From positions 1 to 64,000 of the IMG/VR virus record IMGVR_UViG_3300028394_000044: 64,000 nucleotides of DNA; one strand, 5' to 3'. Source of the stretch: a virus. Position numbers and translations under genes: made by a program. A model generated the notes under the pieces. That model worked only from the letters and a program-made list of their open reading frames with translations. It was not told the origin of the DNA and ran no database searches. Below, piece by piece: positions 5,308-30,907 of this stretch (its first letter is position 1; every line of letters begins with the position of its first letter).

Positions 5308-8300
5308 ATGTCAATTTCAAACATCACAAGAACAAACACAATTGACGAATGGCGTATACAAACGAACCTATCGGCTAATAGTCTTAATACAATTGAGACT
5401 GGAGTTTATAACAAAACTTCGGGTACATTAGCTATTGGCTCAAATGCTTCGCTACAAGTTTCGAATACAGCACTTTTCTCTACCGATATTACTGTTGCTA
5501 GAGATATTTCTGTTGGTACAGCAGGTATAGCAAAAGGTAATATTGGTGTTGGTGGTGTTGTTTCAATTTATGGACCAGGAAATGGTCTGATTGTAGCCAA
5601 CAATATTACTTCTAATGGAAGTGTTATTGTTAAGAACACGATTCTAGCCAACAATGTAACAGTCAATTCAAATGCAGTTGTTGTCGGTACAACTACTAGC
5701 GGATATTTAATTGTTAATAATAATGCAACAATCGGATCAAATGCAACGGTTGTTGGTACTGCAAATATAGGTTTCTTGGGTGTAGCTAATACTGGTGTCT
5801 TTGGTAAATCAGTTTCTATCGGCGAAAATTTAAATGTTACTGGTAATTCTTATGTCACCGGAACTTCTTATGTAACAGGGAACACTTTTTTAAATGGTAT
5901 TCTGACAGTTGAACAAAATATCACCACTAACGGAAGCTCCATTGTTAAGAACACCTTAACTGCAAACAACATTACAGTTAATTCAAACGTTGTCGTTGTT
6001 GGTACAACTACTAGCGGGTATTTAATTGTTAATAACAATGCAACAATCAGTTCAAATGCAACAGTTATTGGTACAACAAACACAGGATTTTTAGGTGTCG
6101 TTAATACTGGCGTATTCGGCAAATCAGTTTCTATTGGTGAAAATTTAAACGTTACTGGCAATTCTTCTGTTACAGGTACTTCTTCCGTAACTGGAAATAC
6201 TTTTTTGAGTGGAATTTTAAACGTTGAACAGAATATTACGACCAACGGAAGTTCTGTTGTTAAGAACACTTTAACTGCAAATAACATTACAGTTAATTCT
6301 AATGTTGTTGTGGTAGGTACAACAAATACAGGTTTCTTAGGTGTCGCTAATACTGCAAACTTTGGACAATCTGTTACTGTTGGTACAAATTTAACGGTTA
6401 GTGGAAATGCATCATTAACAAATGCGACAGTATCAGGCACTCTTACAACAAAAGATTCTTCTTTAACGGGTAATCTTTCTGTCTCAGGTAATGCATCAGT
6501 AACAAATAAACTAACAGTAACAGGTGATATTCAAACTCTATCAAACTCAAAAGTTAATGGTAATCTTAACGTTGATGGAGATACCAATCTTGTTGGTAAT
6601 TTGGGTGTTACAGGTAACTTTACTTTAACTGGACTTACAGTTTTAGACACTGATAAATTTATTATTGGCTCAACTACTCCAATCACTATAGGTAATGCTT
6701 ATCTTGGTGTTTACAGAGGCAACACAACCGGCATCTTAGGTACAGCTAATGCTAACGCATATATTCGTTGGGCAGGTACGGCTAAAGAATGGCAAGTTCG
6801 TGATGTTGACAATACCGACATCAATACAAGTTTCTCTAAAATACTTACTGCTAATCTGATTACAATCAGTACAGCAACTACAAGCAACACAACTTTCCCA
6901 AGTTCATGGTTAATGAAGAACTATGTGGATAATGCTAATACTAGCATGAAGAGTTATGTTGACAATAATGCTATTGCTGTTGCTGCCGCAAACACTGGTG
7001 CAGGTTTAATTTCTGTTACATCTGCTTACCAAGCAAATGTTGGTGCGGTCAACATTGGACTCAACAACGAGATTAGTAACCGTCAAGCTAACGTTGGTTC
7101 AGCAGTTATCACTTTAACATCTGGTTATCAAGCAAACGTAGGTGCCGCACGAATTGCTGACCAATTAACTTCACAAGCAAACGTTGGTGCTGGTCTTATT
7201 GCCACAACAAACGCATATCAAGCAAACGTTGGTGCAGTTAACATTGCTCTTAACTCTGAGATTACAAACCGCCAAGCAAACGTTGGTGCCGCTGTAATAA
7301 CTGCCGCTAGTGCTACAAGTACAGCTAATACTAATTTGAAAAATTATGTTGATACGGCTATCACTACAACAACTTCAGCTTATCAAGCAAACGTTGGTGC
7401 TGGTCTAATTTCAACAACTTCTGCTGTTACTTCAGCATACCAAGCTAACACTGGTGCAGCATTAATTACTGCCACTGTTGCTACAAGTACTGCCAATACC
7501 AACCTGAAAAATTATGTTGATACTGCGATTAATACAACAACTTCTGCTGTCACTTCAGCATACCAAGCTAACACTGGTGCAGCATTAATTACTGCCACTG
7601 TTGCTACAAGTACTGCCAATACCAACCTGAAAAATTATGTTGATACTGCGATTAATACAACAACTTCTGGTTATCAAGCTAATACTGGTGCTGTAAATAT
7701 TGGACTAAACTCTGAAATTACTAATCGCCAAGCTAACGTTGGTGCAGGTTTAATTGCAACAACTTCTGCTGTCACTTCAGCATACCAAGCTAACGTTGGT
7801 GCAGGTTTAATTTCTACAAGCTCTACACTCACTTCTGGTTACCAAGCTAACTCTGGTGCAGCCTTGATTAGTGCTAAAAGTTATTATACAGGTTCTTCAC
7901 CTATTTCGGTTAGCTCAGGTGCAATTTCAATTCAAGCCGCCACATCCGGTCAAAACGGCTATATGTCTTCAACATATGCCAGTAAATTGGATGGTATTGC
8001 CTCTGGTGCAACAAACGTTACCAATACAAATCAGTTGACAAATGGTGCAGCATTTATTACAGCAGGTTCAACAACTACAGGCACACACAGTGGTTTAGTT
8101 ACTGGACCTGTTAGAAACATAATTTCAGTTATTGGAACAAATACAACTGCTATTGCTGGTTATTCTTATATTTTAACTGCATCATTGACACTAACATTAC
8201 CTCTTTCACCTACACCAGGAGATTCTATCGTTATAGTCAATACTTCAGGTACAGCAACGCCAGTCGTTGCACGTAACAGCGAAAACATAATGTCCATTGC

Positions 8301-8385
8301 AGAAGATATGACTATAAATACTGTTGGTGCTTCATTCACTCTTACCTACGCTGATGCGACACGCGGCTGGGTAATTATTTTTTAA
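5308..8385 (+). CDS. Long tail fibre/whisker-like protein (beta-helical repeats, Ala/Asn coiled coil, T4 gp34-N-like C-terminal domain)
   Basis: N-terminal TIDEWRIQTN virion-attachment motif; 105-aa beta-rich repeats; YQANxGA repeats; C-terminal LTLPLSPTPGDSIVIVN..VARNSENIM..TLTYADATRGWV. Confidence 0.7.
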   Translation: MSISNITRTNTIDEWRIQTNLSANSLNTIETGVYNKTSGTLAIGSNASLQVSNTALFSTDITVARDISVGTAGIAKGNIGVGGVVSIYGPGNGLIVANNITSNGSVIVKNTILANNVTVNSNAVVVGTTTSGYLIVNNNATIGSNATVVGTANIGFLGVANTGVFGKSVSIGENLNVTGNSYVTGTSYVTGNTFLNGILTVEQNITTNGSSIVKNTLTANNITVNSNVVVVGTTTSGYLIVNNNATISSNATVIGTTNTGFLGVVNTGVFGKSVSIGENLNVTGNSSVTGTSSVTGNTFLSGILNVEQNITTNGSSVVKNTLTANNITVNSNVVVVGTTNTGFLGVANTANFGQSVTVGTNLTVSGNASLTNATVSGTLTTKDSSLTGNLSVSGNASVTNKLTVTGDIQTLSNSKVNGNLNVDGDTNLVGNLGVTGNFTLTGLTVLDTDKFIIGSTTPITIGNAYLGVYRGNTTGILGTANANAYIRWAGTAKEWQVRDVDNTDINTSFSKILTANLITISTATTSNTTFPSSWLMKNYVDNANTSMKSYVDNNAIAVAAANTGAGLISVTSAYQANVGAVNIGLNNEISNRQANVGSAVITLTSGYQANVGAARIADQLTSQANVGAGLIATTNAYQANVGAVNIALNSEITNRQANVGAAVITAASATSTANTNLKNYVDTAITTTTSAYQANVGAGLISTTSAVTSAYQANTGAALITATVATSTANTNLKNYVDTAINTTTSAVTSAYQANTGAALITATVATSTANTNLKNYVDTAINTTTSGYQANTGAVNIGLNSEITNRQANVGAGLIATTSAVTSAYQANVGAGLISTSSTLTSGYQANSGAALISAKSYYTGSSPISVSSGAISIQAATSGQNGYMSSTYASKLDGIASGATNVTNTNQLTNGAAFITAGSTTTGTHSGLVTGPVRNIISVIGTNTTAIAGYSYILTASLTLTLPLSPTPGDSIVIVNTSGTATPVVARNSENIMSIAEDMTINTVGASFTLTYADATRGWVIIF
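5602..6360 (+). repeat. In-frame 315-bp (105-aa) tandem duplication, about 2.4 copies
   Basis: NIT(S/T)NGS..VKNT starts at 5602, 5917 and 6232 (315-bp spacing). Confidence 0.85.
7415..7669 (+). repeat. Near-exact 123-bp (41-aa) tandem duplication
   Basis: caagctaacactggtgcagcattaattactgccactgttgc... at 7441 and 7564; TTSAVTSAYQANTGAALITATVATSTANTNLKNYVDTAIN twice. Confidence 0.9.
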
Positions 8386-8398
8386 TATTGATATTTTT

Positions 8399-8851
8399 AT
8401 GATTAAAATTCCAAATCCAGAAGAGATAGAATCACAAACTTTAGAGCAAACGCTTCAGTATGCTAAGTATCAACAACCTTGGTTAGTTTATCGTGATGAA
8501 AATAAATTTTATGTTAACTCCGGTGATGAATATGCCTACGAATATGTAGAGCATGAACAAAGTTACTATGTTGATACTAACATGCAAAAAGGCATGTTGG
8601 TTTTACCACCAAATCCAAGAGATGGATTTAAAATTATTGTGAGTGACTATTTTGGTAGTTGGATATATCATCCACTCATAATTCATCGTAACGGAAAATC
8701 AATCATGGGGTTTGATGAGCACATGACATGTGACGTACCAAATATGATTTTTGGTTTAATATATACCAATACAAGAGTTGGATGGGTTGTAACACAGAAT
8801 CTTACAACCAATGAACTTTCAAATAAGGTCAAGAAAGGACCATTTCAATGA
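8399..8851 (+). CDS. Stand-alone paralogue of the C-terminal domain of the upstream fibre
   Basis: LVLPPNPRDGFKIIVSD..IHRNGKSIMGFDEHMTCD..GLIYTNTRVGWVV aligns by eye with the C-terminus of 5308..8385. Confidence 0.6.
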   Translation: MIKIPNPEEIESQTLEQTLQYAKYQQPWLVYRDENKFYVNSGDEYAYEYVEHEQSYYVDTNMQKGMLVLPPNPRDGFKIIVSDYFGSWIYHPLIIHRNGKSIMGFDEHMTCDVPNMIFGLIYTNTRVGWVVTQNLTTNELSNKVKKGPFQ

Positions 8852-9627
8852 GTAGTTTATCTTCATTTATTGCCGCCGCAGGTGGAGGTGGTGGCAAATT
8901 AAAATACCAAGAATTTACTGCATCTGGTACATTCACTCCTTCTGCAACTCTAGTTACCAACGGAGGTCAAGTTTGGGTTCAACTTGTATCTGGAGGAGGC
9001 TCTGGTGGTGGTGGATATACTGACAACGATACCTACGCTTTCTACGGTGGCGCTGGCGGTGGTGGTGGTATGAAAATAAGTCCATTTACAGCGACTTCAG
9101 CACAAAGTGTAACCATTGGTGCCGGCGGGACGGGAGTTGCCGGGGGGACGTACCCCGGTACCACAGGTAATCAAGGAGGAACTTCTTCATTTGGAAGTTT
9201 TTCAATTATTGGCGGTGGTCCGGCTGCCGCCGCCTTCTCCGCCTTTACTACTATGTCTGGGGCGTGTGGTGGAAGTATCGCATCTCAGAGTTATGCGGCT
9301 GGAGGTGGTGGAGGCATGGGTGGAAGCGCAAGTGGTGGTGGTGGAGGTCCTGGAAGTATTGGTAGTGCGGGAAATGGCCCTCCAGTTAACTCCGGCTCAT
9401 CCCAAGGAATAATTGGTGCACTTGGATTTGCAGGAGGCGGTGGCGGTGGCGGTGGTGGTACAGGATCTTCTGGTGGTGGCAATAGCGGCGTTTACCCCAG
9501 TAGCGTTGGCGGCAGTGCAGCAACTGTAAACACAGGTAGTGGCGGTGGTGGCGGAGCGGTTGGAATTTCGGGTGGTGGCGGTGGTGCTGGCGGTTCAGGC
9601 TTTTGTCGCGTGTGGTGGTTTGAATAA
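8848..9627 (+). CDS. Glycine-rich (polyglycine) virion/adhesin-like protein
   Basis: EFTASGTFT..VWVQLVSGGGSGG..GGGGG repeats ending GGSGFCRVWW; SD AAGGA upstream. Confidence 0.65.
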   Translation: MSSLSSFIAAAGGGGGKLKYQEFTASGTFTPSATLVTNGGQVWVQLVSGGGSGGGGYTDNDTYAFYGGAGGGGGMKISPFTATSAQSVTIGAGGTGVAGGTYPGTTGNQGGTSSFGSFSIIGGGPAAAAFSAFTTMSGACGGSIASQSYAAGGGGGMGGSASGGGGGPGSIGSAGNGPPVNSGSSQGIIGALGFAGGGGGGGGGTGSSGGGNSGVYPSSVGGSAATVNTGSGGGGGAVGISGGGGGAGGSGFCRVWWFE

Positions 9628-9636
9628 GGAAATAAA

Positions 9637-10215: not shown

Positions 10216-10548
10216 TTGGCTGCATTTACAGAAATTGTTGTTGAGCAAGGGGCAACGTTTGAGACTAAACTCAACGTTGAAGATTCGTATGGAACGGCAA
10301 TTAATTTGTATGCATATAGTGCTAGTTCACAAATGCGTAAATCGTATTACTCATCTACAAGTTATGCATTCAATTCAAGTGTAACTGGTACAGCCAATGG
10401 TGAAATCACTCTTCGGATGACCGCTGCTAATACTGCAATTTTATCATCAGGTCGTTATGTTTATGATGTTAAAATTACATCTCCAGCCAATACAGTAACT
10501 AGAGTTGTTGAAGGAATTGTGACCGTATTACCCTCTGTAACGAGATAA
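10216..10548 (+). CDS. Small conserved virion protein (Ig-like/BppU-like fold)
   Basis: VEQGATF..SQMRKSYYS..GRYVYDV..VTRVVEGIVTV.PSVT motif; TTG start with SD AAGGA. Confidence 0.65.
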   Translation: MAAFTEIVVEQGATFETKLNVEDSYGTAINLYAYSASSQMRKSYYSSTSYAFNSSVTGTANGEITLRMTAANTAILSSGRYVYDVKITSPANTVTRVVEGIVTVLPSVTR

Positions 10549-10550
10549 AT

Positions 10551-10808
10551 ATGGCAATAACCGCACGCATTCAACAACCAGGAACAATAGGTAAAGTTGT
10601 AGTAAGACCTACAATTAGAACCACAATTGCAGATCCAAAGTATAAACCTGAATTACAGGTTTCCATTTACGATTTAACTGATGTAGATTTAATAACAAAA
10701 AAACAAGGTGATGTTATTCTGTATGATTCTGCAACAAATCGTTATAAGTCAGCACCATTTGGTGATGCTGAAATAAATGTTCCATTGATTTTTGGTGGTT
10801 ACTTTTAA
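10551..10808 (+). CDS. Small fibre adaptor protein ending in GGYF
   Basis: LTDVD...GDVILYD motif common in phage fibre linkers. Confidence 0.5.
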   Translation: MAITARIQQPGTIGKVVVRPTIRTTIADPKYKPELQVSIYDLTDVDLITKKQGDVILYDSATNRYKSAPFGDAEINVPLIFGGYF

Positions 10809-10829: not shown

Positions 10830-12479
10830 ATGTCTAATACTGTAATTCAACTAAAATATTCTAACGTAACCAATAAACCGCCTACGTTGAATGTATCCGA
10901 ACCAGCATACTCAAGTGTATCTGGTACCCTTTGGATTGATGATGGAACTTCTGTTGTTGCTATTGGTGGTAAAGCATACACCACAAAAATTGACAATGCA
11001 ACTTCTGCGGCTACTGCAAATACTTTAGTCCTGCGTGATGCCACAGGCAATGCATCTTTCAATTACGTCACCGCTAACATTAATGGTAATATTTACGGTA
11101 ATGCTACAAGCGCAGATAAATGGTTTACTGCTAGAAATATTGGAGTTTCTGGAGATGCAACGGGTATTGTTTCTGTTGATGGAACAGCAAATGCTAATAT
11201 TCCATTAGTTCTTTCCAACTCCGGCGTAAGTGTAGGAAATTATGGTGGATCAACTAATGCCGCAGTAATTTCTGTGGATTCAAAAGGTCGTATAACATAT
11301 GCTGCTAACGTTGCTATTTCTTCATCACTAAATTTTGCGGGTGATGTTGGTGCTGCGCCAGGTAGCTTGTCTCTAATTACTGACACATTGAATATCAAGG
11401 GAGGTTTAAACGGTGGTATCAGCACAAATGCAATTGATGCTAACAATACAGTACTTGTTAGTGTTGATAATACTGTTCTTAGAAATTCTGGAAATCAGTT
11501 TATTACAGGCGACTTGTCACTAACAGGGAGTTTGTTTGTTGCTGGTAATACCACAACAGTAGATACTACAACAGTATCCACTGCTGATTCTTTAATTAGA
11601 TTAGCCGCTAACAATACAATAAGCGATGTTCTTGATATTGGTTTCTATGGTAAAGCAAATACAGGAACATCAGTTACTCATCACGGTCTTGTTCGTAGAG
11701 CAGGAACTGGTAATGATTTCTTTTTATTCAAAGGATTAACTTCCGATCCAACATCAAATGTTTTGGCCACAGGTTCAGTAACGGCTGCTAATACCGCAAC
11801 ATTGAGGGCTAACCTAACTGGCGGTATGATTTCAGCACTTGCTAATACAATTAGCGTTGTTGACGGTGGTACTGGTGCAGGCACATTTGCTGTTGGTAGC
11901 ATTATAGTTGGTGATGGAACAAACTCATTAAAAGTACTCGCTAATACAGGTACGGCAGGAACATATGGTTCCACATCTAACACATTAATTGTTACTACAG
12001 ACTCTTACGGTCGGGTATCATCAGTTACAAATAGTGCAATTCAAATTGACGCATCTAATATTGTATCTGGTAAATTGGCAATTACAAGAGGCGGCACAAA
12101 CAACGATACCTATACAACTGGCGCCGCAGTATTCTATGATGGTACTGCAATCAAAACATTAGCAAATACTGGTTCAGCAGGATCTTATGGTTCAGCATCT
12201 TATGTTCCAGTTATTACAACTGATGCTTTTGGTCGAGTTTCTGGTGTAAGCAATACTGCAATAAATATTGATACTAGTGCAGTTGTTTCTGGTACATTTG
12301 GTGTTGCAAGAGGTGGTTCAGGAGCATCTTCATTCTCAATTAAAGGTGTTATTGTATCTGATACATCATCGACAACTGGTGCATTGTCTTCATTGACTTC
12401 ATCAACAGAAGGTCATCTATTACAAATTAGTTCATCAGGAGCACCAACTTTTGCACACTTGAGCGGCGGAACATTTTAA
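10830..12479 (+). CDS. Tail fibre protein (Mtd-N-like N-terminus, VDSKGR/TDSYGR repeats), ends in GGTF
   Basis: MSNTVIQLKYS..PPTL N-terminus; G.YG....I..D..GRV repeats typical of fibre shafts. Confidence 0.65.
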   Translation: MSNTVIQLKYSNVTNKPPTLNVSEPAYSSVSGTLWIDDGTSVVAIGGKAYTTKIDNATSAATANTLVLRDATGNASFNYVTANINGNIYGNATSADKWFTARNIGVSGDATGIVSVDGTANANIPLVLSNSGVSVGNYGGSTNAAVISVDSKGRITYAANVAISSSLNFAGDVGAAPGSLSLITDTLNIKGGLNGGISTNAIDANNTVLVSVDNTVLRNSGNQFITGDLSLTGSLFVAGNTTTVDTTTVSTADSLIRLAANNTISDVLDIGFYGKANTGTSVTHHGLVRRAGTGNDFFLFKGLTSDPTSNVLATGSVTAANTATLRANLTGGMISALANTISVVDGGTGAGTFAVGSIIVGDGTNSLKVLANTGTAGTYGSTSNTLIVTTDSYGRVSSVTNSAIQIDASNIVSGKLAITRGGTNNDTYTTGAAVFYDGTAIKTLANTGSAGSYGSASYVPVITTDAFGRVSGVSNTAINIDTSAVVSGTFGVARGGSGASSFSIKGVIVSDTSSTTGALSSLTSSTEGHLLQISSSGAPTFAHLSGGTF

Positions 12480-12501: not shown

Positions 12502-13065
12502 ATGGATGTGAGATTACAAAATGCTTATGTGGAAGTTCTGCTTTCCAATTTTATGGAAGTTGTAAAGCAGAATTTAATGTTCCAAGCACAACTTGAAGTA
12601 AATAAAAATAGTATACGGGAAGCAGAAGATTCGATAAAAAAATTAAAAGAAGTTTCTGATTCAAATATTCAATACCAAAATCAAAGTGTTGAAAAAGACA
12701 AAATTATAAATCAATTGACCACCGAAAGGGACAACTTAAAAAGTTCCGCAGGATCAAATAATTCTGTACTTCAAGAAAGAGATAGATTGCAAAATGCAGT
12801 TAATGACTACATGAGGCAATTAAAAGATACACAGTTAGAGGTGTTAAAAGTTAAGAGTGAATCCCAGGATGTTTTATTGCAAAACAATAATAGGATTGAA
12901 GAACTCACTAAATATGTAACTAGATTGGAAGCTGTAGTTTCAGCAAACAAACTTAAAAAAGTTAAACTTGGTGAAATTGTTCAACCCGATTCTCCAGAAT
13001 TTACAGATAAAATGTCGTTAGAAATTACGAGTAATGATAGTGTAAAGTCTGGAGGAACATTCTAA
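12502..13065 (+). CDS. Coiled-coil protein, probable fibre assembly chaperone, ends in GGTF
   Basis: Long heptad-rich Q/E/K sequence within the fibre locus; SD AAGGA. Confidence 0.5.
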   Translation: MDVRLQNAYVEVLLSNFMEVVKQNLMFQAQLEVNKNSIREAEDSIKKLKEVSDSNIQYQNQSVEKDKIINQLTTERDNLKSSAGSNNSVLQERDRLQNAVNDYMRQLKDTQLEVLKVKSESQDVLLQNNNRIEELTKYVTRLEAVVSANKLKKVKLGEIVQPDSPEFTDKMSLEITSNDSVKSGGTF

Positions 13066-13075: not shown

Positions 13076-14041
13076 ATGGCCAATACAATAATTAAGTTAA
13101 AAAATTCGGGCGCAATAGGTAATGTACCAACTATACTTTATCCGGGTGAACTTGCTATCAATTATGGTGATGGTAAGCTATACTACGGCAATTCGACAAA
13201 TAGCGCAGTTCCTTTTAACACCACATTTCAACCGGTTGGTCTAGATCAGGAAATTCAATTTAACGATTTGGGTAGCTTTGGTGCATCTGCAAATCTTAAA
13301 TTTAATAAAACTACAAAAACTTTAACTACCGATAACCTTATAGTCACAGGTAATATTACCAGTAATATTATCATAAGAATCGGTGATGTTTCAAACTCAG
13401 CATTTGGCCAATCAAACTCAGCTTTTGGTCAGGCTAACTTAGCATTTGACAAAGCTAACAGTGCCAATTCTTTGGCTCAAGCGGCTTACGATAGAGCTAA
13501 TTCTGCTAGTGGCACAGTTTATTCAAGTACGCCGCCAGAATTTCCAACAGTAGGCCTTCAGTGGGTAAATACAGATACTGGAATAAAATATGATTACACC
13601 AATGATGGTGATTCATATCAGTGGATTGAATTAGGTCCAACAACAGTTGCTGTTCCAGTTATTGGTTACACAACACAAGTAGTTTTGGTTGGAACAACTG
13701 AAGGTAGTTCAGAGAAAGAAATCTTTGTCAACGGAATTACCAATAATAGAATTCCTGTTAATGCAAACAAAACAAGCTACTACACAATTGATGTTGTTAC
13801 TAGAAGAACTGATGTACCAGGTGAATCTGGTTCTTTCTTTTTGAAAGCAACGGCTGCAAATAATTCAGGTACTGTTTCCGATGTTGGTGCAGTTTATGAA
13901 GTTGTAGTTGCAAGAGATGATGTAGGATTTACTGTAGATGCTCGGGCAAACAACACCACAAAGTCTATAAATATATACGTTACAGGTGTTACTGGCAAAA
14001 CATTAAACTGGAAAGCCGTAGTTACCACATTAGAGGTATGA
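13076..14041 (+). CDS. Fibre adaptor/branch protein (Mtd-N-like N-terminus)
   Basis: MANTIIKLKNS..P..LYPGELAINYGDGKLYY; SAFGQAN repeats; GLQWVNTDTG..YQWIELG domain; C-terminal domain paralogous to 28534..28995. Confidence 0.6.
   Translation: MANTIIKLKNSGAIGNVPTILYPGELAINYGDGKLYYGNSTNSAVPFNTTFQPVGLDQEIQFNDLGSFGASANLKFNKTTKTLTTDNLIVTGNITSNIIIRIGDVSNSAFGQSNSAFGQANLAFDKANSANSLAQAAYDRANSASGTVYSSTPPEFPTVGLQWVNTDTGIKYDYTNDGDSYQWIELGPTTVAVPVIGYTTQVVLVGTTEGSSEKEIFVNGITNNRIPVNANKTSYYTIDVVTRRTDVPGESGSFFLKATAANNSGTVSDVGAVYEVVVARDDVGFTVDARANNTTKSINIYVTGVTGKTLNWKAVVTTLEV
13966..13973 (+). promoter_or_regulatory. T4-type late promoter TATAAATA (inside upstream CDS)
   Basis: Exact consensus 75 nt upstream of the 14048 start. 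Confidence 0.5.
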
Positions 14042-14047
14042 GTAAAT

Positions 14048-17000
14048 ATGGCGTATAATTTTCCTAGTGATCCAGCTTTAGGTCAAACATACTCTTTCGG
14101 TGGCAAAACTTGGAAGTGGAATGGATATGCTTGGGATTTATTACAAGGTCTACTTCCTCCCGCATCAGGAAATAATTCATTAGTTCTTTCATCTGACGGA
14201 ACAAATTATGTTTTTACTGCTGGCGGAGCATCACCTGACATTTATGCAAGAAACAAAGCAAACACTGCATATAATGTCGCAAGCCTTGCATACGATGCCG
14301 CTAATAACGCAGTCGATACTTGGGTAAGACAAGCGGCTAATAGTGCTAGTGCTTATGCCAATTCAGCATTTGGTCAAGCTAATACAGCATTCAATAAAGC
14401 CAATTCTGCATATGATGTTGCGGGTCTAGCATATAATGCCGCAAACAATGCAGTAGATACTTGGGTAAGACAGGCGGCTAATAGTGCTAGTGCTTATGCC
14501 AATTCAGCATTTGGTCAAGCTAACACAGCATTAATTGCGGCCGCAAATGCAGTATTATCAGGTCAAGCAAACGTAGGTGCTGGACTAATTACCATTACTT
14601 CCGCTTATCAAGCTAACGTAGGTGCTGGTCTTATTGTTGTAAATGGTAGACTCAACTCGTCTTTTGACCAAGCTAACTTAGCTTATAATGCCGCTAATAC
14701 CGCAGTTACAACCGGACAAGCTAACGTTGGTGCTGGTCTTATTGTTGTAAATGGAAAAATTAGTTCCGCATTTGACCAAGCTAATCTTGCATATGGTGCG
14801 GCTAATACGGCAGTTACTACCGGACAAGCTAACGTTGGTGCAGGATTAATTGCAATAAGTTCTTCACTTACTTCAGCTTACCAAGCAAACGTAGGTGCTG
14901 GATTAATTACCATCACTTCAGCTTACCAAGCTAACGTTGGTGCCGGAATTATTCTTGTAAACAATAGAGTTGGCTCAGCCTTTGACCAAGCTAACTTAGC
15001 TTATAATGCCGCAAATAATGCGGTAGATACTTGGGTAAGACAAGCAGCCAATAGTGCTGGCGCTTATGCAAATGCCGCTTTTGATAAGGCTAATTCAGCT
15101 TATAACGTTGCGGGTCTAGCGTATGATGCCGCCAATAATGCAGTACTATCTGGTCAAGCAAACGTTGGTGCCGCAGTAATTACTATCACTTCGGCGTATC
15201 AGAATAACGTTGGTGCTGGACTTATTTCTACTACAAATGCTTACCAAGCAAATGTTGGTTCAGCTAGAATTGAAGTTCTTGGTCGTGCAGACTCAGCATT
15301 TGGTCAGGCTAATCTTTCTTATAATACGGCTAACTCTGGTGTTGGTATTGGTACTTCAGCATTTGGTCAGGCTAACTTAGCATATAACACCGCAAACTCT
15401 GGTGTTGGTATTGCTACATCCGCTTTTGGTCAGGCTAACTTGGCTTATACTACAGCCAATTCTGGAGTAGGAATTTCCACTTCAGCTTTTGGTCAAGCTA
15501 ACTTAGCATTTGATAAAGCAAATTCTGGTTTTGGTTTAGCTACATCATCATTTGGTCAAGCTAATCTTGCTTATACTGCGGCTAATTCTGGTATTGGTAT
15601 TGCTACATCAGCCTTTGGTCAAGCTAACTTAGCATTTGATAAAGCAAATAGCGCAAACATTTTAGCACAAACCGCTTACGATACAGCAAATACTAAATTC
15701 AGTTCTTCTGGTGGTACAGTTTCAGGTAGTGTAACAATTACAGGAAACTTAACTGTTTCGGGTAATGTAACAAGTATCTCAGCAAATAATTTGTCTATTA
15801 AAGACAACATGATTTATTTGAATTCGAATAGTGATGTTGCTAACCCAGATTTAGGTTTTGCTGGTAATTATAATGATGGTACATATCATCATACAGGTTT
15901 GTTTAGAGATGCATCGGATGGTATTTGGAAGTTTTTTGATAATTATCGACCAGAGCCTGATGCATCACCGTATATTGATACTTCAAATTCAACATTTAGA
16001 ATTGCAGGATTAACTGCCAATTTGATTACTGATGTTATTAGCGTTCGTGGCATGGATCCATTAGATAGAGCCAATAACGCATTTGGTCAAGCCAACTTAG
16101 CTTATGATGCCGCTAACAGTGCTGTTATTGTTGGTCAAGCTAACGTAGGTGCTGGACTTATTGCAGTTACTTCTGCATATCAGGCAAACGTTGGGGCTGG
16201 TCGTATTGCCGACCAAGCCTCTGCACAAGCAAACGTTGGTGCAGGACTTATCAGTACCACTTCAGCTTATCAGGCTAACTCTGGTGCTGGTTTAATCTCT
16301 CTCAGTTCATCATTAACTTCCGCATATCAAGCTAACTCTGGTGCTGGACTTATATCTTTAAATTCCAGTTTAACATCAGCTTACCAAGCAAACGTAGGCG
16401 CCGGTTTAATTGCCACAGCGAATGCGGCTCAAGCTAACGTAGGCGCAGGACTAATTTCTTTAAACTCAACATTGACTTCAGCTTACCAAGCTAACGTAGG
16501 TGCCGGTTTAATTACACTGAATTCAAATTTAACTTCTGCATATCAGGCTAACGTAGGTGCAGGACGTATTGCCGACCAAACCTCTGCACAAGCTAACTCC
16601 GGTGCAGGATTAATATCATTAAGTAACACTTTAACTCCAGCATATCAAGCTAACTCTGGTGCTGGACTTATATCTTTAAATTCCAGTTTAACATCAGCTT
16701 ACCAAGCTAACGTTGGTGCTGGTTTAATTGCTACTGCTAATGTGGCTCAAGGAAATACTGGTGCTGGATTAATTTCATTGAGTTCAGCTTTAACCTCTGC
16801 ATATCAAGCTAACGTTGGTGCTGGTCGTATTGCCGACCAAGCCTCTGCACAAGCTAATACTGGCGCTGGTCTAATCACCGCTAAAGCTAACTGGGAAGCA
16901 AATACTGGTGCAGGTTTAATTACCGCTAAGTCCACTTGGGAAGCAAATACTGGCGCTGGATTAATTACAAAAGTATCTAAAGCTGGTGATAACATGACTG

Positions 17001-17368
17001 GTGGTTTATATGCACCATCATTAGCAGCTAATACGACAGTTACAATTAATACTGCACTAACACAAGGTGCAACAGTAGTTACAACTGCAACTACATCACA
17101 AATTACATTAGATTCATTCTCTACAAGCACATATCGTTCTGCAAAATACTTTGTCCAGATGACTAGTGGTTCTGCATATCATGTTATTGAACTAAGCGTT
17201 CTACATGATAATACAACTGCATACTTAACACAATATGGTGAAATTAAAACTGGGGCTACATTGGGTGTATTCGACTCAACGATCACAACAGGCACATTAA
17301 GTCTACTATTTACACCAAATAATTCAATAACTACAGTTAAGGCAAGTTTTAACAAGATTGCCGTATAA
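14048..17368 (+). CDS. Long Ala/Asn-rich coiled-coil fibre protein
   Basis: MAYNFPSDP..GKTWKWNGYAW N-terminus; dozens of SAFGQANLAY and YQANxGAGLI repeats; C-terminal DSFSTSTYRSAKYFVQ..HD..AYLTQYG domain. Confidence 0.7.
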   Translation: MAYNFPSDPALGQTYSFGGKTWKWNGYAWDLLQGLLPPASGNNSLVLSSDGTNYVFTAGGASPDIYARNKANTAYNVASLAYDAANNAVDTWVRQAANSASAYANSAFGQANTAFNKANSAYDVAGLAYNAANNAVDTWVRQAANSASAYANSAFGQANTALIAAANAVLSGQANVGAGLITITSAYQANVGAGLIVVNGRLNSSFDQANLAYNAANTAVTTGQANVGAGLIVVNGKISSAFDQANLAYGAANTAVTTGQANVGAGLIAISSSLTSAYQANVGAGLITITSAYQANVGAGIILVNNRVGSAFDQANLAYNAANNAVDTWVRQAANSAGAYANAAFDKANSAYNVAGLAYDAANNAVLSGQANVGAAVITITSAYQNNVGAGLISTTNAYQANVGSARIEVLGRADSAFGQANLSYNTANSGVGIGTSAFGQANLAYNTANSGVGIATSAFGQANLAYTTANSGVGISTSAFGQANLAFDKANSGFGLATSSFGQANLAYTAANSGIGIATSAFGQANLAFDKANSANILAQTAYDTANTKFSSSGGTVSGSVTITGNLTVSGNVTSISANNLSIKDNMIYLNSNSDVANPDLGFAGNYNDGTYHHTGLFRDASDGIWKFFDNYRPEPDASPYIDTSNSTFRIAGLTANLITDVISVRGMDPLDRANNAFGQANLAYDAANSAVIVGQANVGAGLIAVTSAYQANVGAGRIADQASAQANVGAGLISTTSAYQANSGAGLISLSSSLTSAYQANSGAGLISLNSSLTSAYQANVGAGLIATANAAQANVGAGLISLNSTLTSAYQANVGAGLITLNSNLTSAYQANVGAGRIADQTSAQANSGAGLISLSNTLTPAYQANSGAGLISLNSSLTSAYQANVGAGLIATANVAQGNTGAGLISLSSALTSAYQANVGAGRIADQASAQANTGAGLITAKANWEANTGAGLITAKSTWEANTGAGLITKVSKAGDNMTGGLYAPSLAANTTVTINTALTQGATVVTTATTSQITLDSFSTSTYRSAKYFVQMTSGSAYHVIELSVLHDNTTAYLTQYGEIKTGATLGVFDSTITTGTLSLLFTPNNSITTVKASFNKIAV

Positions 17369-17834: not shown

Positions 17835-20461
17835 GTAGCATATCTTCAGGCACACTAGTTAATACCGGTTTAGTTGTTGCATCAGATACATCCGGTAATT
17901 TGGTTGTAAAAACTGGAGCCACAGGTAATACTGCGGCAGTTTTTGATGCTAATGGTAGTGTCAACTTTGGTTACTCAGTTACTCATGGTGTTGGTACAGC
18001 CAACGGCGTTGCCTACCTGAACGGTAGCAAAGTCGTAACCACAGGGTCTGCACTAACGTTTGATGGAACAAACTTTGCCACCACCGGAACGGCAACGGCT
18101 ACAAAACTTATTCCCACAGGAACTAGCGTAACGGGCAACGGTATGTACTTGCCTGCCACCAATTCAATTGGCATTTCTACGGCAGGTACAAACGCTGTTT
18201 ACATAGACGCAAGCCAGAACGTAGGTATTGGGACGAGTAGTCCTGCTGGTAAGTTAGATGTTACAGGCAGTTTAGGTAAATTTACTATTGATGCCTCTGG
18301 AACGTCCGTATCCTTAACTTACGGTGTAGCAAATTATATTCGCGCGTCATCCGCAAGTGGTAATTTAAATGTTGGTGCTTATGACTATCTTTCATTTCAA
18401 ACTGGTTCTGGATTTACGGACCGGATGCGTATTGACTCCTCCGGTAACGTATTTATTGGAGGCAGTAGCGGCCTAAGCGCAGAACGTTTTTACGTTAGGG
18501 GGGCTACTCTTGGCGGCACATCAGGTAACACTTCATACAACAGTGTGTTTTATACACCTGACGTTACAAACGCGACACGGCTGAGTATTCTCGACTATCG
18601 CTTTTCAAACGGTACAAGTCATATATCGTCTAGAAACCTGATCCAAAGGACTGTGGATGTTACTAATATGGGATATGTAGGGTTTGACAGTTATGCCACC
18701 TCAATTGGGTGGGGGACAACCGAAGCCATGCGTATCGACTCCTCCGGTAACGTAGGTATTGGGACGAGTTCGCCAGCGGTGAAACTGGATGTCAATGGAA
18801 TTACTGGTTGGCAAGGGGGCACAACTGGTCAAACGGCGCAAATTGTTGGTGCGTCAAGTGGCATAAATGGCGGTGGTAACTTTAGGGTTTTGAGCAACAC
18901 CACACAAGCCGTAGATGTTGGAGGCGCGTTAACGCTTGGTGGATACTATACAAGCACAACAGCTTCGGTTGATTTTGGCGTTATTCTGGGGGCCAAAGAA
19001 AATAGTACTAGTGGTAATACTGCTGGCTATTTAGCGTTTGGAACACGCCCTAATGCTGGCAACATGACCGAACGGATGCGTATCGACTCCTCCGGTAACC
19101 TTGGACTGGGTATTACTCCGAGTGTTTGGACTACTTTTTCATCCGTATTTGAAGTGCCCGGCGGCGCTTTGGCAGGTATTTCGGCTAACCAAATAGGTGT
19201 TTGGCAAAACTGTTTTTATAACTCGTCATCTTTTAAATACAAATCTTCTGCTGGCGCTACTTTGTATCAGCAAGCGGGATCGAGTCACGTTTGGTACAAC
19301 GCCCCCTCTGGCACAGCAGGTAATGCCATCACGTTTACTCAGGCGATGACGCTAGATGCAAGTGGGCGACTGTTAATTGGAACTACAAGCGGCGGCGCTC
19401 CTTTGGTTGTTAAAGTTGCAACAAATGCAAACTTTGCAGTGCAAAACGCAAGTGGACACCTCCAATTGCAGGGCATTAACGATGCTGGTAACGCTTTTGC
19501 ACAGCTTGACCTTGCTGGTTCATTTATTACTCTTAGTCCAGCATCCTCTGAAGCTGTTCGTATAGACTCCAGTGGCAATTTAATTGTTGGTGGCACTTCT
19601 CCATTTGGTCTTATTACTTCCCTAAAAAACTCAGCAGGTGGTTACTCTTCAGCTTTTACTGCCAGAGCAATAGGTGGAGCAAACAGTCAACTGACTGGTT
19701 ATTCGTTCATGCCAACTTTTGGCAACACAGCAGATTACACACCACGCCGCGCTGCTGATATGTGGGGCGGTTTTAACGCTGGTAACTGGGGTACTGAGTT
19801 CTTGGCGTTTGGTGTTGGCACAGGCACAGGCAACGATGGTGGTAGCTTAACCACTGAACGGATGAGAATTACGGGCGATGGTGCCGTATTGGTCGGAAGC
19901 ACCAGTGCTATTGCTGGCTATACACAAGTAAGCGTCACAGGATCAAGCACCAACCGTGGTGCATTTGTTATGGGTCGAACAACGGCAGCAACAACTGGTG
20001 TGGCTGGTACGCTGGTAGCCTACAACGGTAGCAACGCCGTTTGTGGCATGGATTTCCAATCCAATAGCGCAAATAACAGCGGCTACATTGGTACATATAC
20101 CTACAACGCTGGTGCTTTTGCTCAAGGTCCATATCTCAATACTGGCGGCACAAGTTGGACAACAGCATCAGATCAGAATCTAAAAGATGTCACGGGCGAA
20201 ATCACCAACGCCCTGAACAAAGTGTCTCAAATTCGTGCAGTTGAATTTACTTGGAAAGCAGACGAATCCAAAAAACAACATGTTGGCTTTATCGCTCAAG
20301 ATGTGCAAGCAGTTTTGCCTGAAGTAATTGACACTGACACTAATGGTTATCTTGGCGTTCGGTACGCTGAAGTTACTTCGTTGTTGCTTGCCGCAATCAA
20401 AGAACAGCAAACTCTTATTGAATCACTTACAACTCGCCTCACGGCGCTGGAGCAAACATGA
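17831..20461 (+). CDS. Tail fibre with MRIDSSGN modules and C-terminal S74 intramolecular chaperone
   Basis: Repeated (E/D)RMRIDSSGN(V/L)GIG; SDQNLK..GFIAQDVQAVLPE..AIKEQQ S74 signature; visibly higher GC than its flanks. Confidence 0.8.
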   Translation: MSSISSGTLVNTGLVVASDTSGNLVVKTGATGNTAAVFDANGSVNFGYSVTHGVGTANGVAYLNGSKVVTTGSALTFDGTNFATTGTATATKLIPTGTSVTGNGMYLPATNSIGISTAGTNAVYIDASQNVGIGTSSPAGKLDVTGSLGKFTIDASGTSVSLTYGVANYIRASSASGNLNVGAYDYLSFQTGSGFTDRMRIDSSGNVFIGGSSGLSAERFYVRGATLGGTSGNTSYNSVFYTPDVTNATRLSILDYRFSNGTSHISSRNLIQRTVDVTNMGYVGFDSYATSIGWGTTEAMRIDSSGNVGIGTSSPAVKLDVNGITGWQGGTTGQTAQIVGASSGINGGGNFRVLSNTTQAVDVGGALTLGGYYTSTTASVDFGVILGAKENSTSGNTAGYLAFGTRPNAGNMTERMRIDSSGNLGLGITPSVWTTFSSVFEVPGGALAGISANQIGVWQNCFYNSSSFKYKSSAGATLYQQAGSSHVWYNAPSGTAGNAITFTQAMTLDASGRLLIGTTSGGAPLVVKVATNANFAVQNASGHLQLQGINDAGNAFAQLDLAGSFITLSPASSEAVRIDSSGNLIVGGTSPFGLITSLKNSAGGYSSAFTARAIGGANSQLTGYSFMPTFGNTADYTPRRAADMWGGFNAGNWGTEFLAFGVGTGTGNDGGSLTTERMRITGDGAVLVGSTSAIAGYTQVSVTGSSTNRGAFVMGRTTAATTGVAGTLVAYNGSNAVCGMDFQSNSANNSGYIGTYTYNAGAFAQGPYLNTGGTSWTTASDQNLKDVTGEITNALNKVSQIRAVEFTWKADESKKQHVGFIAQDVQAVLPEVIDTDTNGYLGVRYAEVTSLLLAAIKEQQTLIESLTTRLTALEQT

Positions 20462-20757
20462 CTACTATCACTTGGACAATCTCACAGACAGATTACCTTG
20501 TCGCTGACGGGTTTATTACCACAGCCCACTGGAGAGCAACTGCTGTAGACGGTGAATTTACGGAATCTATTTATTCCATGCTTATTTTTGCTCCCGGTAC
20601 ACCGACTATTTCATATAATGAAGTGACACAAAACGATGTGTTGAATTGGATTTGGGCAAACGGTGTAGATAAAGAAGCTACAGAATCAAGTCTTACACAA
20701 AAAATTGAGCAATTAAAGAACCCAGTAAAAGCTGCTGGTTTACCTTGGGCAATATAA
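20458..20757 (+). CDS. Small fibre-associated protein (follows S74 fibre)
   Basis: MTTITWTI..AHWR..VLNWIW..GLPW; paralogue of 26218..26604. Confidence 0.55.
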   Translation: MTTITWTISQTDYLVADGFITTAHWRATAVDGEFTESIYSMLIFAPGTPTISYNEVTQNDVLNWIWANGVDKEATESSLTQKIEQLKNPVKAAGLPWAI

Positions 20758-20770
20758 TAAGTAAAAATCT

Positions 20771-26217: not shown

Positions 26218-26604
26218 ATGACAATGCCACCAACAATAACAATTAGTAGACCAGACTACTCACACTTGACCTTTACTTGGTCAGTTACAAGTCTAAAAAC
26301 TAAGAATGAAGGTTCAAACGAATCAGCCGTAGTTCAGACATACTGGAAAAAGATTGGTACCGATGCACAAGGTAACACAGGTGAATTTTCTGGAGCTACT
26401 CCATTCACCTCAACAACTATGCCAGAAGGTGACACATTTGTTCCATTTTCTGAACTAACAGAGGAAATTGTTCTTGGTTGGATTAAAGATGTGGTCGTTG
26501 GTTCTTATGAAGACCACGTAAACGGTAAAATTGCCGAACAAATTGATGCAAAAGTGAATGTAGTGGCTGAAGCAGAATTGCCTTGGTCCACTCCATCCGC
26601 TTAA
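26218..26604 (+). CDS. Small fibre-associated protein (follows S74 fibre)
   Basis: FTWSV..YWK..FVPFSELTEEIVLGWI..LPW; paralogue of 20458..20757; SD AGGAG. Confidence 0.55.
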   Translation: MTMPPTITISRPDYSHLTFTWSVTSLKTKNEGSNESAVVQTYWKKIGTDAQGNTGEFSGATPFTSTTMPEGDTFVPFSELTEEIVLGWIKDVVVGSYEDHVNGKIAEQIDAKVNVVAEAELPWSTPSA

Positions 26605-26847: not shown

Positions 26848-27789
26848 ATGGCATTGCCATCATCACCATCATCTATTTCATTAAACCAAGTTAACACAGA
26901 ACTAGGATTTAGTGCTACTGCAATTATTGCGATGAATGATGCCGCTGTTCGCACACTATTTGGTGTTGCTTCTGGTGCAATTAGCATGTCCAATGGATAT
27001 GGTAAGTCAAACGCTTTGGCGGTTAATTACTTGGTAGTTTCAGGTGGAAATATAGGTCAGCAAGGTGGTGGTGGCGGAGGTGCTGGAGGATATATTTCTA
27101 CTTCAGCATCTCTTTCTAAAGGAACAGCCTTTACTGTCACAGTTGCTGCCGGAGGGTCTACACCTGGTCAAATTGGACCTAGTTCATCATTTAATGGGAC
27201 TGCCCCATTAGGTGGTGGATCTACAGTGAATCGTAGTTATACAGATATTCCTGGTGGTTCAGGTTATGGACAGTTTTATGGTCCCTCATTTGGTTATGGT
27301 ACAGCAGGTCAAGGAAATAATGGTGGCGCTGGTTATTATAATGGCGGTTGCGGTGCTGTCAGTTATGGTGGTGGTGGTGGCGGTGCGGGTGCAGCCGGTG
27401 GTGGACCTGGTGCTGGCGGTGCTGGCTTAACTTGGTATGATGGCATAACTCGCGCTGGCGGGGGTGGTGGTACTATTTCATATCTTACTTATTGTGCTTG
27501 CGGACCATTTTGGTATGGACAATCTGGATATGCTGGTGGCGCCGGAGGAGGTGGAACAGGTGCATCTAGTGATGATTGTAATGGCTATACAGCAGGAGTT
27601 AGCGGTTCTGCAAATACTGGTGGTGGTGGTGGTTCTGGTGCGATTAACGGAACTGCTGGCCCATCAGGTGGTTCGGGCGTAGTAGTTATCCGCTATGCAG
27701 GTTCTCAAGTTGCTACGGGTGGAACCGTTACTTCTTCTGGTGGTTATACCTACCATACTTTTACTACATCAGGAACTTTTACTACATAA
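26848..27789 (+). CDS. Glycine-rich (polyglycine) adhesin-like virion protein
   Basis: MALPSS..ISLNQVNTELG docking N-terminus; GGGGGAG motifs separated by variable Cys/aromatic loops; GGSGVVVIRY..YHTFTTSGTF. Confidence 0.65.
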   Translation: MALPSSPSSISLNQVNTELGFSATAIIAMNDAAVRTLFGVASGAISMSNGYGKSNALAVNYLVVSGGNIGQQGGGGGGAGGYISTSASLSKGTAFTVTVAAGGSTPGQIGPSSSFNGTAPLGGGSTVNRSYTDIPGGSGYGQFYGPSFGYGTAGQGNNGGAGYYNGGCGAVSYGGGGGGAGAAGGGPGAGGAGLTWYDGITRAGGGGGTISYLTYCACGPFWYGQSGYAGGAGGGGTGASSDDCNGYTAGVSGSANTGGGGGSGAINGTAGPSGGSGVVVIRYAGSQVATGGTVTSSGGYTYHTFTTSGTFTT

Positions 27790-27796
27790 TAATCCA

Positions 27797-28213: not shown

Positions 28214-28216
28214 TTT

Positions 28217-28995: not shown

Positions 28996-28996
28996 T

Positions 28997-29700: not shown

Positions 29701-29703
29701 TAT

Positions 29704-30723
29704 ATGTACGCTAAATTAGTAGTAGGTGGATCACCTATCACATCGGTTGCTGCTATACGAGATATTGGTAGATTACTCACAGCACCGGAAGGCAATGTTA
29801 GCACAAGTTTATTGGGAGCTTTTAGCAACTCAAGTTCAGTTATACTAGATTCCACTCCAGCGGGTTGGACTTATGTTGGCAGTACTAATCCATTGGACAG
29901 ACCTACTATTGGAGTAGTTGGAACAACTTATACACAAAACACAACTGCACCAAATAACATATGTTGTTCTGCACCTTGTTTAGAAGGTAGTGCATTAAAA
30001 TATGTAGCGCTTACTGTGGGGTATAATAGTACTGGAAATACTGGCTATTTTGCTATGACTACAGCTTCTAGTGCAAATTCAACAGGGGTTTTGGTTAATG
30101 AAACTGTTAGAAATTTTATGACCAGCTCATCGGTCGCTGTAACCAATAATTTTGCGGTAACTGGTGGACAAGTTTATCATTTAATTGCAAATCAACAAGG
30201 TGTCACTATAGTTTGTGAAAATACAGGGTTATCTGCCGTCTGGGAATCTAGTATGACTGATGTTAATCGATTTTATGGTACTGCACCGGTAGTCCATTAT
30301 TTACATAATATTTCTACGAGTGTACAGTTTACAGATTCTTCTATAGGCCCATCGTCCTCTATGGTGGGGGCTAAAGCATTTGCAATAACAGTTGCAGTAA
30401 CCGATGTAAATACTGGAACTTATTACGGAACGTATGATGTTACTAGTTCAGGTTCTGCTAACATTTTCTTTTTAGCACAGAATGATTTAACTTACCGTAA
30501 AAATTCTATTGATGCTACAGGAGCACCAAAATACCAAATAACTCCAATCTTGTACACAAATAGTTCCCTTGGGCATCCAATACAATATGTAACTGGGGTT
30601 GTTCCAATTTACTGGACTAAAGGTTCTTTAGGCAATAGTGGCGATACAGTTATGGTTGGCGCTGATCCATATACATATTTTAATTGTGGAACTGGATTTG
30701 GTATAATTATGAAAACGAGTTAA
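29704..30723 (+). CDS. Putative virion structural protein
   Basis: 339-aa S/T/G-rich beta-type composition. Confidence 0.5.
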   Translation: MYAKLVVGGSPITSVAAIRDIGRLLTAPEGNVSTSLLGAFSNSSSVILDSTPAGWTYVGSTNPLDRPTIGVVGTTYTQNTTAPNNICCSAPCLEGSALKYVALTVGYNSTGNTGYFAMTTASSANSTGVLVNETVRNFMTSSSVAVTNNFAVTGGQVYHLIANQQGVTIVCENTGLSAVWESSMTDVNRFYGTAPVVHYLHNISTSVQFTDSSIGPSSSMVGAKAFAITVAVTDVNTGTYYGTYDVTSSGSANIFFLAQNDLTYRKNSIDATGAPKYQITPILYTNSSLGHPIQYVTGVVPIYWTKGSLGNSGDTVMVGADPYTYFNCGTGFGIIMKTS

Positions 30724-30727
30724 CGTT

Positions 30728-30907
30728 ATGGCACTATTAGCAAATACCATTTCTAATGACATTGTATCCACATTGTCAAACTTGACTCTTATAAAAACGT
30801 ATATACCCAGTACACTTGTATATAAACGTTTAAGTGTTGCTGCTGATCCTTTTCTTGATCCTACTATTGTAAGAAGAGAAACAGCATATCAAAGTTACGT
30901 TACATAA
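30728..30907 (+). CDS. Small hypothetical protein (59 aa; not in ORF track)
   Basis: ATG 30728 to TAA 30905-30907, MALLANTISND...AYQSYVT; fills the gap before the terminator. Confidence 0.5.
   Translation: MALLANTISNDIVSTLSNLTLIKTYIPSTLVYKRLSVAADPFLDPTIVRRETAYQSYVT

Follow-up and report, generated by a model that had tools for sequence, protein, structure and literature searches.

The window analysed here, bases 1–64000 of the complete 162,299-base IMG/VR record IMGVR_UViG_3300028394_000044 (which has direct terminal repeats), comes from an uncultured T4-like (Kyanoviridae-like) myovirus. Between positions 5308 and 30907 it contains a tail fibre locus that probably encodes a host-recognition supermodule, made of several fibre sub-assemblies in which the free carboxy-terminal ends of proximal proteins would dock the amino-terminal heads of proteins encoded by downstream genes. 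The modules concerned occupy exact terminal positions, and their adjacency, tail first and head next, recurs in many lineages. Open reading frames (ORFs) are named after their start coordinates in the 64,000-nucleotide window, and L-numbers denote comparison loci from IMG/VR. An earlier note on this DNA, from here on the original prediction, described the locus as about 24 genes, among them at least six fibres and two polyglycine proteins, daisy-chained by paired terminal plugs and sockets. All features and termini that it quoted are present where it placed them. The fibre and polyglycine parts of its inventory hold, with seven fibre-like proteins (5308, 10830, 13076, 14048, 17831, 20771 and 22995) and two Gly_rich_2 proteins; the gene count becomes 25 ORFs on the plus strand. 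Its interpretation is partly supported: four of its five pairs pass directional adjacency across distant lineages.

Adjacency in other genomes was examined by eight IMG/VR scans; many of the compared loci are kin, and the adjacency counts are not independent. IMG/VR contains at least 551 relatives of the carboxy-terminal module of 17403, here called the hub; the best 80 loci were used for the context figures. The hub motif, N-x-x-S-x-G-P, lies about 27 residues from the stop codon in 76 of these 80 loci, on carriers of 68 to 934 residues with several unrelated amino-termini, and in the whole 162-kb genome it is found in 17403 only. The gene after the hub starts −41 to +54 nucleotides from it, mostly at 16 nucleotides or less. 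A hidden Markov model (HMM) of the window's three heads was matched by 19 of the 63 unique genes that come first behind a hub and by 17 of 438 other ORFs (Fisher p 1e-9). All matches, those 17 included, are located 0–2.9 kb downstream of the hub stop codon and none upstream, which bears out the predicted order from the hub to MSS/MSN heads. With cruder patterns, a tag of class i to iv is recognised on the first gene behind the hub in 49 of 68 unique contexts; classes i, ii and iii stand in series in several loci, and class iii heads come after hubs in many loci. The heads, about 40 residues long, are conserved over 29 sequences with unrelated distal parts. The close relative L004 retains the heads and differs in the distal parts and the intervening genes. 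Cultured hub carriers include many cyanomyoviruses, MEP401 (gp57) and P-SSP7 (gp17).

In the window, heads of this kind open three fibres with Peptidase_S74 (PF13884) ends: 17831 (expectation value, E, 3e-16; 59.7 bits), 20771 (E 9e-10; 39.2 bits) and 22995 (E 3e-17; 63.2 bits). The gathering cut-off is 22 bits, and the matches were also confirmed in a genome-wide scan. These are the plug-headed fibres of the original prediction, to which 28534, not listed there, has to be added as a fourth plug-headed protein. Starts of the MS.I/L type are present within the locus on 8848, 17831, 20771, 22995 and 28534; genome-wide, the loose pattern also opens two short ORFs near 103 kb and 119 kb, which are unrelated.

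With little beyond an NFIVKNGL head and the hub tail, 17403 is the clearest candidate for a pure adaptor. It would turn one fibre end into a multi-tip hub, receiving the heads of 17831 (class i), 20771 and 22995 (class ii) and 28534 (class iii). When hub residues 70–143 and residues 1–60 of 17831 were modelled as a 3:3 complex, the score was 0.44, with the best of three controls at 0.00; the runs share at least 68% of contacts and the predicted local distance difference test (pLDDT) of the partner is at least 75. Of 80 solved complexes 58 attained the mark set for such scores, as did 2 of 110 mismatched pairs; at 0.60 or below, just 7 of those 80 solved complexes did so, and both passing mismatches. 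The prediction lends weak support to this pairing. The monomer model of 17403 is of low confidence (pLDDT 63.5), and a Foldseek search with it returned nothing at E≤0.001, the top rows being CBA120 TSP4-N at a non-significant E of 1.5. A PDB profile search with the hub gave nothing significant. T4gp10-like and gp34-type amino-terminal domains were both considered for 17403; there was no gp10 match in Pfam or PHROG and no match to gp34-type PHROGs.

The gene upstream of 17403, the fibre gene 14048, ends in a domain named here after its YRSAKY motif. In 47 unique contexts this domain is always carboxy-terminal, with 78–83 residues from the motif to the stop, and it is carried by fibres with at least three amino-terminal types. 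Heads of the NFIVKNGL type lie behind the YRSAKY gene: they open 23 of the 44 genes that come first, 23 of 66 further downstream and none of 66 upstream (p 1e-5). This is the order that had been proposed for 14048 and 17403. The AlphaFold model of the domain (pLDDT 79) is best aligned to the C-domain of T4 gp9 (1qex_A residues 169–284; Z 10.0, root-mean-square deviation 2.9 Å, 103 aligned residues, 12% identity). Two structures tie with gp9, the end domain of the Fri1 tailspike (6c72_A, Z 9.7) and a baseplate chain of a Klebsiella myophage (9f4a_LA, Z 9.1), and the next structures, which are unrelated, have Z scores of at most 6; a PDB profile search with the domain found nothing significant. 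T4 gp9 is known as the 'socket protein', to whose C-domain the long fibre is joined coaxially (PMC3004832). By analogy, the gp9-like end of 14048 may seat the NFIVKNGL head of 17403.

Translation of the NFIVKNGL-headed gene 17403 starts at TTG, with a GGAG ribosome site ahead of it. In at least 15 other loci the homologous heads also have a TTG-read start, as do alternative collagen-like MATTRL.. heads (next genes of L151–L186). The TTG start may be a conserved means of achieving low stoichiometry.

The third pair concerns GGxF tails and I.LK.S heads. Genome-wide, only 3 of 251 ORFs end in GGxF: 10551, 10830 and 12502. They belong to a five-gene module (10216, 10551, 10830, 12502 and 13076; A to E) present in about 40 IMG/VR loci. 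The GGxF ending is kept in 20 of 20 unique homologs of B, 25 of 28 of C and 26 of 26 of D, 71 of 74 in all. Outside the clade, where heads are 44–57% identical and contigs of 146–302 kb are included, a (D/N)GGx(F/Y) tail is present on the protein ahead of the I.LK.S head in 21 of 28 unique contexts, and the tail proteins measure from 73 to 827 residues. Homology of the 10830 head to that of 13076 is supported by hhalign (97%, E 1e-10), and the distal part of E varies from 144 to 1101 residues among relatives. Within the window, recurrence of a plug directly after its socket, which the original prediction had claimed in general, applies to the GGxF pair, seen twice, and not to the others. The cultured phage Melnitz retains A, B with a GGTF end and C with the end GGTYS, behind which comes an E-like head; it lacks D. 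In L009-type genomes the B domain heads a 738-residue fibre without the tail (found by BLAST), and an extra 186-residue protein ending in GGTF lies directly ahead of C. By eye only, a 1020-residue HTVC008M protein beside the A homolog resembles the B N-domain at its amino-terminus. An atlas look-up of D gave unnamed viral clusters only.

Gene A is likely to provide the platform from which this module starts. Its product, with a mean column identity of 81% over 27 relatives and occurring in HTVC008M, Melnitz and cyanomyoviruses, belongs to a PHROG family whose annotation (phrog_3304) matches T5 p132, a structural Ig-fold collar protein that anchors about 50 amino-terminal residues of the side fibre pb1 (PMC10038345). 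T5 is a siphovirus with the collar around p140; against the solved T5 chain 8hqz_Q in the PDB, gene A gave a non-significant E of 0.6. To judge by these matches, 10216 is a probable fibre-anchoring platform, behind which the GGxF tails of 10551, 10830 and 12502 would engage the I.LK.S heads of 10830 and 13076. A candidate identity of these heads as Mtd_N (PF18454) was rejected: they match no Pfam family even at E 10, and hhalign against the true Mtd_N heads of relatives gave a probability of 1%. In L022 it is the F-type head that matches Mtd_N (E 2e-15).

Heads of this kind are short and of low complexity, and the number of sites for a promoter-like sequence, TATAAATA, is not above chance (6 observed, 7.6 expected). 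The likeness of short Ser/Thr/Gly-rich ends could then be a product of chance or composition. We consider this hardly credible, as it is contradicted by the comparative counts: the rarity of GGxF ends among the genome's ORFs and their retention in homologs, the enrichments for the hub and for the YRSAKY domain, and strict directionality.

The fourth pair involves the end of the first fibre, 5308. Its last ~90 residues (about 8113–8382, finishing ..RGWVIIF) form a gp34N-like domain; most clade relatives of 5308 have an S74-type end instead. The next protein, 8399, is 31% identical to this end; its matches in 13 PHROGs (best E 1.5e-9; E 8e-5 for phrog_972) are to the N-proximal domain of tail proteins, among them T4 gp34-type fibres and spikes. 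Together with 8848 and 9637, 8399 makes up a mobile cassette that 13 loci share, most of them podovirus-type contigs. Wherever upstream sequence is retained, the protein ahead of the 8399 homolog ends in the 5308-type domain class. In ten podovirus-type loci, identity between the upstream end domain and the last 90 residues of 5308 is 54–64% (E≤1e-33); L138 and L139 have a variant there, judged by eye, that finishes ..ARWSVTAG. The 8399 copies are 30–35% identical to these upstream end domains and always lie between such a domain and the Gly-rich gene. A Gly_rich_2 gene with an MS(S/N)LS start comes next wherever the start is readable; in L140 the longest ORF alone was read, and this ORF begins upstream. 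The succession from gp34N-like end to 8399 to MSSLSSF is therefore as had been predicted, and suggests a joint in which 8399 would connect the fibre end to 8848, a Gly-rich tip. The Gly_rich_2 (PF21722) match of 8848 scores 30.6 bits (E 4e-7) and that of 26848 41.7 bits (E 1.7e-10), with a cut-off of 24.3. A PDB profile search with 8848 gave no significant match, and an atlas look-up of 8399 returned nothing but unnamed viral clusters.

On the strength of L007, this pair had also been considered a mere local indel, a reading overturned by the invariant cassette order in relatives of 8399. L007 and L004/L139 (IMG/VR 3300009159 contigs 000218 and 000072) come from one metagenome, both break inside the 14048 homolog and are probably a single genome. 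In that genome the 8399 cassette is placed after the last fibre, just ahead of gp13, and not behind the 5308 homolog. The G+C content of the 8399–9637 cassette region is 43%, against about 35% around it.

The fifth proposed pair, from 13076 to 14048, fails, because the motif in 13076 and the amino-terminus of 14048 are two copies of one motif type rather than complementary parts, and because the pairing is confined to one lineage. Among all loci the motif pattern is found in these two window proteins only, and the pairing is restricted to the window and L007. The end of 13076 (residues 198–321) is instead a tip domain shared with 28534, to which it is 44% identical (E 2e-35).

Because the four remaining pairs pass adjacency from T7-like podoviruses to jumbo-size contigs, all with exact free termini, end-to-end docking fits best. 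From this we infer that the proteins dock physically and are present in the virion. Trimeric proximal ends would capture the first 30–40 residues of the distal proteins non-covalently, and gene order would run from proximal to distal. The stoichiometry that this implies, and the sharing of one hub among several tips, are likewise proposals. In its boldest form, which we consider less likely than not, the scheme amounts to four undescribed docking codes in one virion. The socket of 14048 would bear 17403 and the hub three tip classes (17831; 20771 or 22995; 28534), giving a two-level branched appendage spelt out by gene order, as part of a universal 'connector grammar' of aquatic podoviruses, myoviruses and jumbo phages, including P-SSP7. 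The single tree of about 24 genes envisaged by the original prediction is not supported: at least ten ORFs (9637, 20458, 26218, 26644, 27695, 28217 and 28997–30728) are without module evidence.

Several observations weigh against docking. The hub/17831-head prediction is weak, with one of its three runs at 0.02. The GGxF tail of 10830 precedes 12502, a protein without an I.LK.S head, and some E-type heads come after tails of the FFAFF, hub or ..APGG kind. L007 lacks the 8399–9637 cassette at this place, and gene A comes immediately behind its 5308-type end domain. Near-identical YRSAKY domains in L022 and L026 precede different heads, and obligate one-to-one docking is not supported. Since the YRSAKY fold is as close to the distal ends of tailspikes (Z 9.7), it could be a tip and not a socket. 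Fused socket-plug proteins, a further expectation for other genomes, were not seen in the compared loci: the B domain is fused to other fibres, not to C, and the 738-residue L009 and 1020-residue HTVC008M fibres, examined as possible Rosetta-stone fusions of B with C, do not run into a C-type head. Conserved order, finally, could reflect cassette-wise recombination or chaperone-client pairs.

Some of these points would be expected if the fibres were independent, each attaching to the baseplate, collar or neck by its own head, with the carboxy-terminal modules acting as trimerisation caps or receptor-binding tips and the gene order arising from recombination at conserved ends. The fold shared with tailspike ends, the identical end domains ahead of different heads and the lack of fusions all agree with such an arrangement, as does the small number of head types, which recur on several fibres per genome as for shared baseplate sites. 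Yet podoviruses, myoviruses and jumbo-size contigs, whose baseplates differ widely, all show the same tail-to-head adjacency, an exact free carboxy-terminus is needed by the hub and GGxF modules, and 17403, being little more than a head with a hub tail, would be hard to understand as a fibre on its own. We therefore regard independent fibres as rather unlikely.

Assembly chaperones are often encoded downstream of fibre genes. The small proteins 8399, 9637, 10551, 12502, 20458 and 26218, together with the terminal peptides, might serve fibre folding in the manner of T4 gp38, gp57A or Tfa and be absent from the virion. The names of phrog_863 and phrog_3304, which include 'assembly', and the plain coiled coil of D (12502) would suit such a role. 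However, the partners behind hub and GGxF tails are long fibres with S74 ends or tip domains and not small chaperones, gene A's PHROG family takes its name from a structural collar protein, T5 p132, and host recognition in P-SSP7 is determined by genes 37 and 38 (PMC5520035). Chaperone-client pairing is accordingly improbable as an explanation of the locus, and we return to end-to-end docking in comparing it with known systems.

In P-SSP7, gp17 ends in a hub of the 17403 type, with the motif 27 residues from the stop, and directly behind it are three small paralogous genes, 37–39, with differing amino-terminal tags. Resistance-breaking mutations were mapped to genes 37 and 38, and the authors call direct structural evidence lacking (Schwartz & Lindell 2017, PMC5520035). 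The docking module is not described in that paper, and the cryo-electron microscopy of a related cyanopodovirus left the distal fibre parts unresolved (PMC10575957). The hub of P-SSP7 is on a 715-residue T7-type podovirus fibre, whereas in the present T4-like myovirus it is on a 143-residue adaptor, with long S74 fibres as the tips. In the Methylophilales phage MEP401, gp57 ends in the same hub module.

Branched receptor-binding complexes have been established for Klebsiella and Escherichia phages (PMC6872550). In the anchor-branch complexes of G7C (gp66/gp63.1), CBA120 (TSP1-4), K1-5 (gp37), Klebsiella KP32 and phiK64-1, a primary protein contains the docking site, as proposed here, and secondary receptor-binding proteins with short conserved amino-terminal peptides are encoded alongside, providing several interchangeable tips. 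In those complexes the docks are T4gp10-like domains near the amino-terminal end of the primary protein, whereas here the candidate docks are extreme carboxy-terminal modules. The T4 long fibre (gp9-gp34-gp35-gp36-gp37) is likewise composed of separate proteins placed end to end, with gene order roughly that of assembly. Because it is an end-to-end chain seated in the gp9 socket, the description of the present locus as unlike T4's linear fibre was an overstatement. The likeness extends to the gp9 C-domain fold of the YRSAKY model and to the gp34 N-proximal-type domain of 8399 and the 5308 end. There are, however, no gp34–37 orthologs here, the gp9-like domain ends a 1106-residue fibre instead of a baseplate protein, and the ensuing NFIVKNGL head is not gp34-like. 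Branched docking is thus known in principle; the modules described here are undescribed in the papers that we found.

Should the joints prove real, tips clipped to common stalks through a few portable end modules would set the host range of abundant aquatic phages (relatives of T4-like cyanophages, pelagiphages and methylophages, and P-SSP7-type podoviruses). The host-range proteins of P-SSP7 (genes 37–39) would gain a place on the particle, the hypervariable islands downstream of fibre genes in viromes would be explained, and rules would be available for reading fibre architecture off gene order in uncultured phages. Since phages of Klebsiella, Escherichia and Salmonella are known to have branched complexes, what is gained would be new module types and breadth and not a new principle.

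The coordinates of the features are collected in the table. The giant DUF4815/VrlC-type protein is split over the record ends and the neck genes lie at the right, so that 5308–30907 spans the interval from the giant protein to the neck genes, which is the position of the fibre region in Pelagibacter phage HTVC008M and Methylophilales phage Melnitz. The amino-terminus of the giant protein is encoded by the last ORF of the genome (161152–162299), which shares its amino-terminus with a 2074-residue homolog in L007; the layout agrees with HTVC008M. Linearisation of the record has cut this gene into the genome's last ORF and the window's first. Baseplate genes are located at 148–161 kb of the record, at the genome end. 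The closest cultured relatives of gp15 are from cyanomyoviruses (31–42% identity), and a megablast of the locus against 50,697 phage records gave zero matches, i.e., no near-identical phage record.

Table. Features of the fibre locus and its flanks (window coordinates; aa, amino acids).
Feature	Coordinates	Strand	Remarks
Giant VrlC/DUF4815-type baseplate-associated protein, C-terminal part	114..5072	+	Pfam DUF4815 E 2.7e-18, phrog_358
Fibre 1, 1025 aa	5308..8385	+	clade-conserved N-terminal anchor, repeat shaft, gp34N-like end domain
Candidate connector, 150 aa	8399..8851	+	same domain class as the end of fibre 1
Gly_rich_2 protein, MSSLSSF start	8848..9627	+	candidate tip/adhesin of the first module
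Accessory protein of cassette, 161 aa	9637..10122	+	after the Gly-rich gene in every cassette locus reaching that far
A, 110 aa, PHROG family 'L-shaped tail fiber protein assembly' (T5 p132 collar type by name)	10216..10548	+	phrog_3304 E 1.3e-22, phrog_1084 E 1e-27
B, 85 aa, N-domain and GGYF tail	10551..10808	+	N-domain heads long fibres in other phages
C, 549-aa fibre, I.LK.S head and GGTF tail	10830..12479	+	head homologous to that of 13076
D, 187-aa coiled-coil protein, GGTF tail	12502..13065	+	look-alikes all coiled coils, in virus-only clusters
E, 321-aa short fibre	13076..14041	+	I.LK.S..GELAIN head, Ala/Asn repeat, FP..P..G..W motif, C-terminal tip domain
F, 1106-aa fibre	14048..17368	+	C-terminal YRSAKY domain 16976-17365, candidate gp9-like socket
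Adaptor, 143 aa	17403..17834	+	NFIVKNGL head, hub tail (last ~45 aa), TTG start, ATGA overlap with 17831
Tip fibre 1, 876 aa	17831..20461	+	head class i (MSSISSG..), S74 chaperone end
DUF7936 small protein	20458..20757	+	PF25590 E 4e-20; possibly a fibre accessory
Tip fibre 2, 732 aa	20771..22969	+	head class ii (MSNIISADNG..), S74 end
Tip fibre 3, 1065 aa	22995..26192	+	head class ii (MSSIINADDG..), S74 end, paralog of 20771 (38% identity)
Second DUF7936 protein, paralog of 20458	26218..26604	+	PF25590 E 2e-14
Second Gly_rich_2 protein, N-terminus unlike 8848	26848..27789	+	PF21722; 33% identical to 8848
Mini-tip, 153 aa	28534..28995	+	head class iii (MSIILDGTNG..), tip domain as in 13076
Four ORFs, 164, 70, 339 and 59 aa	28997..30907	+	no Pfam or PHROG match, no module evidence
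gp13, gp14, gp15 (neck and sheath terminator)	30994..33851	+	right boundary; T4_neck-protein E 6e-31, T4-gp15_tss E 3e-68, phrog_211

The repeat shafts of 5308, 14048, 20771 and 22995 are mutually 30–38% identical, and an Ala/Asn repeat family joins these four with 13076. The DUF7936 proteins sit behind two of the three S74 fibres, one of them by an ATGA overlap; similar small genes are found behind S74 fibres in L005. Each Gly_rich_2 gene is followed by a small gene of the phrog_14370/phrog_7759 type; the two genes together span 8848–10122 and 26848–28213 here and 5897–7218 in L135, and Melnitz has the same arrangement. After the second Gly-rich gene of the window, the small 9637-like gene is 27797–28213, and ORF 27695 probably starts at an internal Met (~27797). 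Mid-locus, 28217–28462 encodes an 81-residue Cys-rich protein with a sub-threshold DUF6171 match (26.3 bits, cut-off 27).

The six TATAAATA sites are all on the plus strand, at 8313, 13966, 17364, 30960, 42644 and 45087. Given the expected number, their count is no evidence, and their positions alone are suggestive: those at 8313–8320, 13966–13973, 17364–17371 and 30960–30967 are 34–86 nucleotides upstream of the starts of 8399, 14048, 17403 and gp13, the one at 17364 overlapping the stop codon of 14048. The G+C fraction rises to 0.43–0.48 at 8001–10000 and 18001–22000, against ~0.35 elsewhere, covering the 8399–9637 cassette and the first two S74 fibres, which fits recent acquisition of these stretches from phages of higher G+C.

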